From Candidatus Aenigmatarchaeota archaeon (GTDB lineage: Archaea > Aenigmatarchaeota > Aenigmatarchaeia > GW2011-AR5): a DNA stretch of 64,000 nt. Under the pieces are notes generated by a model. The model saw only the letters and a list, made by a program, of their open reading frames with translations, was not told where the DNA came from and ran no database searches. Positions 47,190 to 51,342 of the stretch are shown piece by piece. The stretch lies in NCBI GenBank assembly GCA_016187335.1, contig JACPJW010000001.1, positions 192,001 through 256,000 of the forward strand, given 5' to 3'. Both the position numbers and the translations under genes were made by a program. Every line of letters starts with the position of its first letter. Within the stretch, counting starts at the first letter, position 1.

Positions 47190-47840
47190 GGGCTGCATCT
47201 TGTATATCCTCCGCTACCGAAAAGGGTTTTAATCCTGTTTTTCAAGAAAGTTGCATGAAAAAGCAGGTTCTGAAGCGCATGCCTGAAGAAACGCAGAAAG
47301 TGCATGCCGCTGATTTTGAAAAGGAAAAGAAGAAACTGGAACAGAGCTTCAAAAAGAAAGAAATGCCCTTCCGCCTGTTCTGGGTGAAGTGAAAATATCT
47401 ACTATTTCTGTTAAAACCTGTAGATAGCTTCGGCTAAATCGTATCGATAAAAAAATCCAGCTTTCTTTGCGTTTTGGAAAAAATAGCGCGCAAAGGTACA
47501 GGTAGTTCCGGGTTACGTCCCGGAACTCACGGAGCCGCAGCTCCGATGAATTGGCATTCTATCTCATGGCCCTCTTTTGATGAAACTTTTTTGAAAAGTT
47601 TCAGAGGAAAGCACACTGACTGTCGCAGAACCCTTTCGGATTCTTTTGATAAAACTTTTCTTGAAAGAAAAGTTTTTAGGAGGTGATCCAGCCGCACGTT
47701 CCCGTACGGCTACCTTGTTACGACTTAGCCCTCCTTGCAGACAATTGATTCGACTTATTCAGCATAAGCCTCACCAAAAGTCCACTCGGATGGCTTGACG
47801 GGCGGTGTGTGCAAGGAGCAGGGACGCATTCAGCGAAAGA

Positions 47841-48030
47841 TTCCACGATTATGAGATCATCATAGTGCTGCTTCTACTCGACCAAAGACATCCGCCCATA
47901 CTTTTAATCACCAGACCGCTACGGATTTCTTTCCGTAGACGCTTTCTTTTTAAGAAAGGGTCTTCATAGTCAAGCACTTCTTCTGTCTTTGATTTTGTAG
48001 CGCCAAAAAATCATTTGGATCTCACATCCA
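47841..48030 (-). other. 16S intron, 190 nt (~Ec 1360s)
   Basis: Relaxed BHB UCAU/GUGG; contains a family-2 hairpin. Confidence 0.8.
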
Positions 48031-48389
48031 TGATGACCTTCGCTTACTAGGGATTCCGGCTTCACGTGGGCGAATTGCAGCCCACGATCTGAACTAGGCG
48101 CCGGTTTGAGAGATTGGCTTCACCTCACGGTGTTGCATCCCATTGTCCGACGCATTGTAGGCCGCGTGTAGCCCCGGAAATTTAGGCCATACTGACCTGC
48201 CGTAGACCGCTCCTTCCTCTGGCTTAGCGCCAGCGGTCCCGCTAAAGTGCATGCCCTGCGTACAGGACATTCGCAACTAGCGGCACGGGTCTCACTCGTT
48301 TCGTGACTTAACACGACACTTCACAGCACGAGCTGACGACGGCCATGCAGCACTTCTCAGTTTGTTAGGTAACCCCTTTAGAGTGACCC

Positions 48390-48962
48390 TCATTCTACTG
48401 TCTTCCCGGGTGAGGTCTCCAGAGAGGAATCCTCATATTTCCAAAGAATGCGTTTGCCTTCATTCTTTCTTGCCACACTACGCGCGGATTCAAGGTCGCG
48501 CAATGTTTCCCTTATTGTGCTTGGCATCAATCTTAATCCAAGGCACAATTCTCCTATGCTCCACCACTTATCATTTTTTCTGATCAACGCAACTATCTTC
48601 TCTTTCGTTGAAGCTTTGTTGCGCATGAAGCCGCCTTTCATCCCTTCTCTTTCCAAGAGAAGCTTCGCCCATTGATTCTTAATCGGTTCCGCAAATTCCC
48701 CTGCAATGGAATAAATCTCCCTGAAAGCATTCCTATGCAGCTTGAAGCCGATGTTTTCTCTTTTGACGAACTTTTTGCTTGCCCAGCCATGCGCTTTGCA
48801 GACCTCAAAAATAGTGTTAAGCTGATTTCTGTTTCTGCTTGACTGAACAAGCACAGGCGACTCTTCAGCTATAAAGCTGAATTCAAACTCGATTAGTGGA
48901 AGGAGTATAGAAGCTGTAAGTTTTTGCCTTTCTTTGCTCGCTCGTAAACACTTATCATCCAT
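48390..48962 (-). CDS. Degenerate single-motif LAGLIDADG-like domain plus winged HTH
   Basis: LTASILLPLIEFEFSF in the motif position; C-terminal SIGELCLGLRLMPSTIRETLRDLE. Confidence 0.55.
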   Translation of the reverse strand: MDDKCLRASKERQKLTASILLPLIEFEFSFIAEESPVLVQSSRNRNQLNTIFEVCKAHGWASKKFVKRENIGFKLHRNAFREIYSIAGEFAEPIKNQWAKLLLEREGMKGGFMRNKASTKEKIVALIRKNDKWWSIGELCLGLRLMPSTIRETLRDLESARSVARKNEGKRILWKYEDSSLETSPGKTVE

Positions 48963-49015
48963 AGTACTGTATACTTTGGATGATTTATTGGTTTCCGTAC
49001 TCGAGTATTCCTCTT
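48417..49015 (-). mobile_element. 16S BHB intron, 599 nt (~Ec 978), with ORF
   Basis: CCAG/CUGG helix, AGAG/CUCU stem. Confidence 0.9.
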
Positions 49016-49035
49016 TCCTGGCGTTGAATCCAATT

Positions 49036-49075
49036 TTCGGCCCAAGCCAATGATATACGTTTCACTGAACTCGGT
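49036..49075 (-). other. 16S BHB micro-intron, 40 nt (~Ec 957)
   Basis: CGGU/GCCG helix. Confidence 0.8.
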
Positions 49076-49114
49076 AAACCGCAGCCTCCACCCCTGGTAG
49101 TGCTCCCCCGCCAA

Positions 49115-49726
49115 TTAGGGGAAAGTAATCCCATCATTTAGCAGCTTCAATCTGAGCTGCTTATCCTTGTGCCAACTTCCGATGTTTTTGCAGAAGTATA
49201 GAAGATTGTTCTTCCTTGTCAGCCTGAATTCCCAGACATTACCGCAAAAGGTAATGTTTGTTGGCTGGCAACTTTGATCAATCAAAACCTGTCTAATGAA
49301 TTCCAAAGATTCCCTGTTTTTCTGGCTGAACGAGATGTATTTCTGTTTCGCTGTATCTGGTTTCTTTGGAAGTCCTCCTTCTGCATCAAAGAATCCTTTC
49401 AAATAGTGAATTTGAATTTTCACTTTCTGTTCCTTTATGCATTTTGGAGTATCCCAGAATTCCTGCGGTGTTTCGAAATCGGATATATCGAGAATTTTTT
49501 CAACATAGCTTCTTCCGTTAATCCTCAGTATTTCCGTTCCGTTTGCATGTTTTGTTATGGTGCCGCGAGCTTCAAACTCTTTATGGAAAAGAGTTTGCAA
49601 AAGGCGTAACCATGATGTCTCTCTTTGTGCTATTTTAATTTCGTAGTTTTTTCCTTTCCTGACATCTATGGATGCGTCTCTCATAGCACCTAACAGATAC
49701 GCAAGTTCTGGGCTGACAGGCTTCAC
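49115..49726 (-). CDS. Two-motif LAGLIDADG homing endonuclease
   Basis: LAYLLGAMRDASI and YLKGFFDAEGGL. Confidence 0.9.
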   Translation of the reverse strand: MKPVSPELAYLLGAMRDASIDVRKGKNYEIKIAQRETSWLRLLQTLFHKEFEARGTITKHANGTEILRINGRSYVEKILDISDFETPQEFWDTPKCIKEQKVKIQIHYLKGFFDAEGGLPKKPDTAKQKYISFSQKNRESLEFIRQVLIDQSCQPTNITFCGNVWEFRLTRKNNLLYFCKNIGSWHKDKQLRLKLLNDGITFP

Positions 49727-49778
49727 TCTATAACTTTGGCAGCAGGGATATTTAAGTGTGGTATCGGGGTTACTTTCT
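49115..49778 (-). mobile_element. 16S BHB intron, 664 nt (~Ec 919), with homing endonuclease gene
   Basis: AGGG/CCCU helix, GAAAGUAA/UUACUUUC stem. Confidence 0.9.
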
Positions 49779-49908
49779 TTCCCTTAAGTTTCAGCCTTGC
49801 GGCCGTAATCCCCAGGCGGCCCGTTTAACGCCTTCGCTTCGGCACCACGGATCCACGAAGGATTCGTGACACCAAACGGGCAACGTTTACAGCTAGGACT
49901 ACCGGGGT

Positions 49909-49990
49909 CTTTAGGACCCTTTTGCGATTTTATTCGCGGTAGCGTGATTTCCGTAGACGCTTTTACGCGCTTGCATGCGTAAAAGGGTCT
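49909..49990 (-). other. 16S BHB intron, 82 nt (Ec 793/794)
   Basis: UUAG/CUAA helix, GACCC/GGGUC stem. Confidence 0.88.
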
Positions 49991-50001
49991 ATCTAATCCC
50001 G

Positions 50002-50035
50002 AATGAACTCGACTAAGATTTTCGTCTTAGTTCGA
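50002..50035 (-). other. 16S micro-intron, ~34 nt (~Ec 781)
   Basis: Hairpin insertion; imperfect BHB. Confidence 0.75.
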
Positions 50036-50090
50036 TTCGCTCCCCTAGCTTTCGTCCCTCACCGTCGGACCCGTTCCAGCCAAGCGCCTT

Positions 50091-50134
50091 ACGTGGAAAC
50101 TTTTCCGTTTTGATTGAATTTTTTGAAAAGTTCA
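50091..50134 (-). other. 16S BHB micro-intron, 44 nt (~Ec 722)
   Basis: GUGG/CCAC helix; family-1 hairpin. Confidence 0.88.
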
Positions 50135-50338
50135 CGCCACAGGTGGTCCCCTACGGATTAAAAGATTTTACCCTTACCCGTAGAGTACCCTTGGCCTCTC
50201 CCGGTCCCAAGCCCGATAGTATCTCCAGCAAGCCTTACAGTTTGCTGCAAGATTTCACCAAAGACACATCGAGCCGGCTACGGACGCTTCAGGCCCAATA
50301 AACGTGACTACCCCTCGTGGCGCGGTTATTACCGCGGC

Positions 50339-50389
50339 ATCCAGATCCTTTTCCGTCAACGCTTTTGCGTCTTCAGACGTAAAAGGGTT
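50339..50389 (-). other. 16S BHB micro-intron, 51 nt (530 loop, ~Ec 523)
   Basis: CCAG/CUGG helix; family-2 hairpin. Confidence 0.88.
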
Positions 50390-50428
50390 GGCTGGCAACC
50401 GTCTTGCCCACCACTTATTCCTCCACCT

Positions 50429-50483
50429 ATGTAATCCTTTCTTCCGTTTCTTTCGCAAGCGTTTTCTTTTCGAAAGAAAAGGC
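50429..50483 (-). other. 16S helix-17 insertion, probable intron, ~55 nt
   Basis: GUAA/UUAC helix; family-2 hairpin. Confidence 0.65.
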
Positions 50484-50550
50484 TTTTACAGTGGAGAAAA
50501 GACAGCGCTAAGCGCTGCCACTCAGGGTTCCCTTGTCAGGCTTTCACCCA

Positions 50551-50600
50551 GTTTGCGAACTTTTCAGTTCCGTTTTGATGGAACTTTTCTGAAAAGTTCC
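50551..50600 (-). other. 16S BHB micro-intron, 50 nt (~Ec 374)
   Basis: UUGC/GCAA helix, GAAC/GUUC stem; family-1 hairpin. Confidence 0.88.
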
Positions 50601-51342
50601 TTGCAAAGGTTTCGCGCCTGCTGCGCCCCGTAGGGCCTGCGTTCATGTCTCAGAACGCATCTCCGGGCTATCGCTCTCACGACCCGTACGGATTACAGCC
50701 TTGTTGAGCAATTATCTCAACAACAAGCTAATCCGCCGCAGTCCCATCGTTCAGTGCATTGCTGCTTTCAGCGAAGATGCCTTCCAGCAATTATCGCCTA
50801 TCGGGTATTATTCCCACTTTCGCAGGATTATCCCCGTCTGAACGGCAGGTTAACTACGTGTTACTGAGCAGTGCGACGAGGTCTTGCACCTCACGTCTCG
50901 CATGGCTTAGCCGAACCCTGATAAAGGTAGTCTCCGGCGGGATCAACCGGAATTGTGCGGGAAAACACAAACCCTTGTGGTTATGTGTCCCTACCATTTG
51001 ATAGAGTCTTGCCTACCCATACCTTTGTTCACTTGTAAGCATGCTTACCAGCTCATATTTATCATGCAGCGGAAGTGTTTCTTCACGAAAAAGGCTGTTG
51101 CCTTAAAATCCGAAACGACGCCTTGCTGTCATGAATAATCATTTCAGTTTTGACTCATCCGCTTTTTACAGCAGAATGTGCCGCGTAATTATTATCCAGT
51201 CAAAAGCGTTCGTAAGAACTGCTTCGCTTTAACGAGCAAGCCAGCTAGCTAGAAGTATAGTTGCCAAACTATGCCCGTCTCAATACTTTCAAGGCACGAT
51301 TCTTAGAACCGCACCACACCATCAATAAATAAAGAAGGGAAC

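Follow-up and report, generated by a model that had tools for sequence, protein, structure and literature searches.

The 16S rRNA gene described here, found in a 64,000-nt stretch of the genome of a Candidatus Aenigmatarchaeota archaeon (the window), is very probably a single functional gene interrupted by ten archaeal bulge-helix-bulge (BHB) introns. All coordinates below are positions in the window, and all 16S features are on the minus strand. Our reading is based on the identity of the gene, the boundaries of the inserts, their BHB geometry, the exact restoration of the uninterrupted sequence, covariation in relatives and the presence of genes for the splicing enzymes, all of which were observed. 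A preliminary description of this DNA, made from the letters alone, had placed a 16S gene with about ten introns at 47678–50953, with no strand given. The Rfam covariance match returns the same coordinates, the number of inserts is exactly ten (34–664 nt), and the observations just listed bear out their description as archaeal introns.

The full-length archaeal 16S rRNA at 47678–50953 (−) matches Rfam RF01959 over model positions 1–1478 with 1072.6 bits, and the cmscan alignments contain large unaligned blocks. The gene is 3276 nt long and consists of 11 exons totalling 1467 nt and ten introns totalling 1809 nt (55%); G+C content is 55.6% in the exons and 41.1% in the introns. A search of the whole assembly (two contigs, 1,014,551 bp, i.e. 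about 1 Mb, estimated to be 90.8% complete) returned two Rfam matches, which are two halves of the same gene inside the 918-kb contig 2, so the assembly holds one 16S copy. Eight of the ten inserts lie within universally conserved sequence. The elements split by introns 3, 6, 7, 8 and 9 are the 530 and 790 loops, the 920 region and the flanks of helix 31, all universally conserved and essential for decoding and tRNA binding; since there is only one gene copy, the inserts must be removed.

Boundaries and bulge-helix-bulge motifs of the ten inserts

E. coli numbering was obtained by aligning the spliced 16S to E. coli rrsH. The number given for intron 2 is approximate because the length of helix 17 varies between domains. 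From the 5′ end, exon 1 (50601–50953, 353 nt) is followed by intron 1 (50551–50600, 50 nt) between E. coli positions 374 and 375, with a canonical BHB of 4 bp in the outer, 4 bp in the central and 8 bp in the inner helix. Exon 2 (50484–50550, 67 nt) and exon 3 (50390–50428, 39 nt) flank intron 2 (50429–50483, 55 nt, ~447/448), which is located in the apical loop of helix 17 and has helix 17 itself (8 bp) as its outer helix. Intron 3 (50339–50389, 51 nt, 523/524) lies in the 530 loop and splits the 515F/519F primer site. After exon 4 (50135–50338, 204 nt) comes intron 4 (50091–50134, 44 nt, 727/728), which includes a hairpin repeat, and after exon 5 (50037–50090, 54 nt) intron 5 (50003–50036, 34 nt, 781/782), whose outer helix is nearly absent. 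Exon 6 (49991–50002) is a micro-exon of 12 nt that corresponds to E. coli 782–793, the 5′ half of the 790 loop. It is bounded downstream by intron 6 (49909–49990, 82 nt, 793/794), which splits the 806R/785–805 primer site and contains a second type of hairpin repeat.

Exon 7 (49779–49908, 130 nt) precedes the longest insert, intron 7 (49115–49778, 664 nt, 919/920), which splits the 915R/926R primer sites and has a LAGLIDADG gene inside. Exon 8 (49076–49114, 39 nt) and intron 8 (49036–49075, 40 nt, 957/958; a relaxed form without outer helix) are followed by exon 9 (49016–49035), which is only 20 nt long, corresponds to E. coli 958–977 and, as we read the sequence, appears to be the helix 31 hairpin; the 958R primer site (958–976) coincides with it. 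Intron 9 (48417–49015, 599 nt, 977/978) holds a second protein gene. Exon 10 (48031–48416, 386 nt) leads to intron 10 (47841–48030, 190 nt, 1363/1364) in the loop of helix 43, with two G–U pairs in its central helix and a hairpin repeat in the middle. Exon 11 (47678–47840, 163 nt) carries the anti-Shine-Dalgarno sequence at its 3′ end.

Several of these boundaries refine the preliminary description. It had located eight of the ten introns correctly, and its site 978 is the 977/978 junction counted from the other side; its site 722 is 5 nt away from the actual junction at 727/728. Its 11-nt exon at 49991–50001 is in fact 12 nt long, as required by the BHB register and by the relatives, which have T or C and never A at E. 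coli 782; intron-free relatives have an identical 12-nt stretch that begins with T or C. The uninterrupted junctions of relatives likewise decide for 55 and not 57 nt in intron 2, and for 599 and not 597 nt in intron 9.

To evaluate the BHB motif, all cut pairs around each insert were considered, each strand being required to have four paired bases followed by a 3-nt bulge that is cut after its second base. There is one clear solution for each insert: all ten have 4/4 central-helix pairs (G–U allowed), 3-nt bulges and a register that restores the mature length. By our own calculation, a 4/4 central helix occurs at a fixed cut by chance in about 2% of cases, and only one to three cut positions per junction yield an identical mature sequence; ten out of ten is therefore far beyond chance. 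At least four of six inner-helix pairs are formed in all ten introns. The outer helix is good in introns 1, 2, 4, 7 and 10, and in introns 2 and 10 it is the stem of a native rRNA hairpin. When each intron was folded with 14-nt flanks and no constraint, the BHB was the minimum-energy structure for introns 1, 2, 3, 7, 8 and 9 (6/10). An unbiased BHB scan of the whole gene gave 305 matches and was too noisy; it was replaced by the alignment-bounded test with a null of random positions.

Some observations weigh against ten spliced BHB introns. Introns 3, 5, 8 and 9 have a weak outer helix or none, for which reason we assign these four to the relaxed BHB type. In the four introns where unconstrained folding did not recover the BHB, the enforced motif lies above the local energy minimum by 0.7 (intron 4), 3.3 (intron 5), 6.5 (intron 6) and 6.7 kcal/mol (intron 10). 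Introns 2 and 10 are placed in hairpin loops, positions that would tolerate an expansion remaining in the RNA. Moreover, the only splicing endonuclease found in the genome is of the single-unit type, an architecture that PMC5829648 links to strict substrate requirements.

Occupancy of the sites in relatives and alternative explanations

We compared the gene with 16S loci from 18 genomes of the same family or order (L-numbers label the loci), on which the predicted mature sequence was placed by a purpose-written spliced aligner. The exons are 83–88% identical to those of relatives with no indels at the junctions, and all ten junctions equal the relatives' uninterrupted sequence. Every site but 957 is occupied in one or more relatives; 957 is empty and matching in 11 of them, and intron 8 is unique to this genome among those compared. 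At the nine shared sites the intron strand of the central helix still complements the exon, and the inner helix differs in sequence in nearly every genome and is still paired. The strict BHB test was passed by 69 of 100 inserts of at least 20 nt from 14 relatives' loci, as against 10% for random positions with the same slack.

More specifically, site 374 is empty and matching in 11 relatives, and L015 has an intron there that is 82% identical to intron 1. Introns are present at ~447 in L011, L013 and L016. Site 523 is empty and identical in L005, L007, L008 and L018 and occupied in L014. At 727 six relatives carry introns with a covarying inner helix. The candidate identification of intron 4 with the published 722 locus was rejected, as L008 and L013 carry a separate intron at 722/723. 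In L014 (G021), a member of another family, sites 781 and 793 are both occupied, which leaves the same 12-nt exon; at 793 introns are also found in L004, L008, L010 and L016, with a conserved central and a covarying inner helix. The long introns at 919 and 977 have orthologues in L013 with 74% and 71% nucleotide identity, respectively. The number of inserts (≥20 nt) per 16S gene in the relatives ranges from 2 to 15. The maximum is found in L015 (G005), where 11 of the 15 pass the strict BHB test. Dense interruption is thus a trait of the lineage and not of this genome alone, and ten is a high number without being the highest.

The alternative that survives best, although we consider it improbable, is that some inserts, chiefly introns 2 and 10, are expansion segments kept in the mature 16S. 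Both are placed in apical hairpin loops that tolerate extra RNA, the BHB of intron 10 needs two G–U pairs besides its unfavourable folding energy, and of the 13 relatives examined at site 1363, 10 have an insert, as would be expected of a stable feature. The same comparison speaks for excision: all ten of these inserts have the conserved central helix and a fully covarying inner helix. At both sites the central helix and the 3-nt bulges are conserved, while length (44–252 nt, the range seen at 1363) and inner sequence vary with compensating changes. Such a pattern, clearest at 1363, is the signature of an excised element and not of an expansion. Relatives without the inserts show exactly the predicted junction, intron 10 shares a dispersed hairpin repeat with other introns, and the interruption of universally conserved rather than variable sequence by eight of the ten inserts is difficult to reconcile with expansion.

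It is very improbable that the locus is a decaying pseudogene with a functional copy in the unassembled part of the genome. The incompleteness of the two-contig assembly leaves some room for such a copy. However, the exons give a full-model score of 1072 bits and align without junction indels at the identity given above, independent assemblies of related genera share the architecture, and the open reading frames (ORFs) in the introns are under purifying selection.

Equally slight is the chance that the 664- and 599-nt inserts belong to the self-splicing types, group I or group II. DPANN rRNA genes are known to harbour group I introns with a LAGLIDADG gene, in some cases next to BHB introns (PMC6125680). 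In region 47500–51100, however, no group I, group II or other Rfam intron family was matched at the gathering threshold or even at E ≤ 1, and neither was any other noteworthy Rfam family at E ≤ 1. Both long inserts form a 4/4 central helix, 3-nt bulges and an 8-bp inner helix in their minimum-energy fold, and the motif is preserved in the L013 orthologues. As their interiors are almost wholly ORF, there is little room for a ribozyme core.

Finally, chimeric assembly through the repeats that six short introns share with other parts of the genome has a negligible probability, given that the gene lies within its 918-kb contig, every insert is bounded by a BHB with exact restoration of conserved sequence, and relatives with assemblies of their own carry inserts at the same sites.

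Splicing machinery, intron-encoded proteins and hairpin repeats

The genes required for removal of ten BHB introns are present. The genome encodes one EndA of 202 amino acids with N-terminal and C-terminal (catalytic) domains (97.4 bits; near 410.5 kb of G000 contig 2) and one RNA ligase RtcB (528 bits; locus L024, G000 C2:765179–766423 in assembly coordinates). The nearest named relatives of RtcB are groundwater metagenome-assembled genomes (MAGs) labelled Woesearchaeota or Pacearchaeota (68–75% identity), which fits a host that would be a small-genome DPANN archaeon of Woesearchaeota type. Almost as near are the RtcB proteins of many bacterial MAGs (Syntrophobacteraceae, Latescibacterota and others; 64–68% identity), which could reflect either a bacterial-type RtcB in the lineage or mislabelled bins.

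From these genes and the folded motifs we infer the following course of splicing. Transcription of the whole gene would give a 3.3-kb precursor, in which the six 3′-terminal bases of each upstream exon and of the intron that follows it would form the 4-bp helix between two 3-nt bulges, stabilised by the inner helix of the intron. EndA would then cut both bulges and RtcB would join the exons, and the introns would be released, probably as circles. In the predicted spliced RNA exon 7 has two partners: its start forms 5 bp with the 12-nt exon, and a segment further downstream pairs with the end of exon 5. Judging by the sequence, both pairings appear to belong to native helix 24. It is likely that the 12-nt exon is held during splicing by its 5 bp with the downstream strand of this helix, and since exons 5 and 6 both pair with exon 7, helix 24 could hold the three pieces for ligation. 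The central helix of the intron 9 BHB uses the 3′ strand of the exon 9 hairpin, so that this BHB and native folding compete; an ordered splicing pathway is plausible.

Intron 7 contains an ORF of 203 amino acids (49115–49726) that is a homologue of LAGLIDADG-type homing endonucleases (Pfam PF14528, LAGLIDADG_3; 38.4 bits against a cut-off of 22.5, E = 1.5e-9). It has no significant sequence match among solved structures. Orthologues are found in the matching intron of L013 (69% identity) and in L014 and L021 (63–69% overall). Its stop codon (49115–49117) is formed by the last 3 nt of the intron, which comprise the final base of the central-helix strand and the two bulge bases.

The ORF of intron 9 (48390–48962, 190 amino acids) matches no Pfam family, and a sequence search of solved structures gave nothing meaningful. 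Its nearest Atlas clusters carry HTH_5 (ArsR-type winged helix) and some larger ones LAGLIDADG_3 together with HTH_5, which we take as a lead only. A mediocre AlphaFold model (pLDDT 66) is alpha/beta in its N-terminal part and shows a helix-helix-helix-hairpin order towards the C terminus, with sub-threshold Foldseek matches to ArsR/SmtB repressors (E = 2.5e-3); a C-terminal winged helix is probable. Orthologues are present in the matching intron of L013 (65% identity) and in L011 (38%). The ORF continues 27 nt past the 3′ splice site (48390–48416), so that its last nine codons and stop come from exon 10; the L013 orthologue ends six codons earlier.

Nonsynonymous divergence (dN) is 0.21 for both ORFs, as against a proportion of synonymous differences (pS) of 0.70 for the intron 7 ORF and 0.77 for the intron 9 ORF. 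With synonymous change near saturation, this indicates that both ORFs are maintained by purifying selection. The two proteins probably explain the spread and retention of introns 7 and 9. The 23S rRNA gene (16273–20555, −) is also enlarged, measuring 4283 nt for a model of 2987 positions, i.e. about 1.3 kb of inserts, and it contains a LAGLIDADG paralogue (~16910–17476) that is 30% identical to the intron 7 protein. The distance between the 23S and the 16S gene, which share a strand, is 27 kb, and the rRNA genes are thus unlinked.

Six of the eight short introns are built from hairpin repeats that recur by the dozen elsewhere in the genome. Introns 1 and 4 contain a hairpin-plus-tail repeat of about 32 nt, the first 33 nt of intron 1 being one copy; in introns 2, 3, 6 and 10 there are dispersed hairpin units of other kinds. 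The remaining two, introns 5 and 8, are unique and contain no dispersed repeat. The hairpin-plus-tail repeat has 70 copies in the genome at up to six substitutions, and the outer bases of its stem covary. Copies in the window include 47571–47602, 50103–50134, 50568–50600 and 17920–17952. Introns of rRNA and tRNA genes harbour copies, as do the 16S trailer and short spacers that adjoin the starts and ends of protein genes.

ARAGORN found only 23 tRNA genes in this ~91%-complete genome, 19 of them called with an intron of up to 1022 nt. As repeat copies sit at D-loop and T-loop positions, many tRNA genes are probably too interrupted for detection. In the roughly 1.08 kb upstream of the 16S gene (50954–52037) there is neither an ORF of at least 120 amino acids nor a match to an Rfam family at the gathering threshold. 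A clear processing stem that pairs leader and trailer of the pre-16S was not seen either, as duplex folding of the 260-nt flanks gave an over-extended, uninformative duplex.

Primer sites and comparison with known systems

Judged by E. coli coordinates, with mismatches inside exons left unscored, intron 3 interrupts the primer site 515–533, intron 6 the sites 787–806 and 785–805, and intron 7 the sites 915–934 and 907–926. The preliminary description had already placed the introns at 523 and 793 within the 515F (515–533) and 806R (787–806) sites, and this holds. The introns add 211 bases to a 515–806 amplicon and 1809 to a full-length one. The usual V4 primer pair should therefore miss the only 16S gene of the organism. 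Of the 18 relatives, 12 have a split 515F site, 6 a split 806R site and 4 a split 915R site; with the 515F and 806R sites interrupted here and in these relatives, amplicon surveys have a systematic blind spot for the whole lineage. The literature already notes in general terms that universal primers miss candidate phyla radiation (CPR) and DPANN organisms whose 16S genes bear introns (PMC7906910). It is also likely that 16S genes of this lineage are annotated in pieces, as with the two Rfam half-matches here.

Jay & Inskeep (2015, PMC4496867) list 13 archaeal 16S intron loci: 374, 548, 722, 781, 803, 901, 908, 919, 978, 1093, 1205, 1213 and 1391. Four of them (374, 781, 919 and 978) are shared with our gene. 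The preliminary description had also counted 722 among the reported loci; the junction concerned is the one at 727/728, which is not listed. In all, six sites of the present gene are absent from the list (~447, 523, 727, 793, 957 and 1363). Like the 16S introns of Thermoproteales, Desulfurococcales and Aigarchaeota described there, those reported here have BHB motifs, reside in conserved 16S regions, come in short hairpin and long homing-endonuclease forms and interrupt primer sites. In contrast to that survey, in which 13 loci are spread across many taxa, ten introns occur here in one gene. The hosts differ as well: those were hyperthermophilic Crenarchaeota, whereas here we have a mesophile-type small-genome DPANN archaeon with exons as short as 12 and 20 nt and short introns based on a hairpin repeat that is dispersed through the genome.

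Paralogous ('transposed') BHB introns were reportedly found in tRNA genes of Thermoproteales by Fujishima et al. in 2010. As in those tRNA genes, the present genome has related intron sequences at several positions and in more than one RNA gene, an arrangement suggestive of spread. Unlike there, the shared unit is a hairpin-plus-tail module of about 30 nt that is also present between protein genes, and the intron ends are tailored to their own exon. Known archaeal LAGLIDADG homing endonucleases of rRNA introns include I-DmoI, I-PorI and the Aeropyrum enzymes. The intron 7 protein resembles them in its size of about 200 amino acids, its LAGLIDADG_3 domain and its location inside a BHB intron of an rRNA gene. 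Small-genome groundwater lineages likewise have many rRNA inserts, some with genes for LAGLIDADG proteins, and these too defeat amplicon primers. The inserts in those lineages are self-splicing or unexplained, while here there are ten BHB motifs and no match to a ribozyme model.

The mechanism proposed is the known, textbook BHB pathway of archaea. What is unusual is the density of introns, the tiny exons, the six unlisted sites and the short introns built from repeats. We found no report of an archaeal 16S gene with at least ten introns or with such short rRNA exons, only general statements, in a search that left most subscription journals outside. Introns at the same site differ widely between genera and several are made of a repeat that has further copies between genes, which bears on how archaeal introns are gained and renewed. 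The finding also raises the question of how exons of 12 and 20 nt stay in position and in order when they are processed by a single-unit EndA and by RtcB. A broader proposal, which we put forward tentatively and regard as rather less than an even bet, is that the rRNA genes of this order, at 2–15 inserts per 16S gene in 18 relatives, are the most intron-dense known in prokaryotes, that dispersed hairpin modules seed or rebuild their BHB introns, and that the 12- and 20-nt exons are spliced with the help of rRNA-helix splints or by ordered action of EndA and RtcB. If this is true, the lineage would provide a natural system for observing the birth of archaeal introns and for testing the minimum exon size in protein-catalysed splicing.

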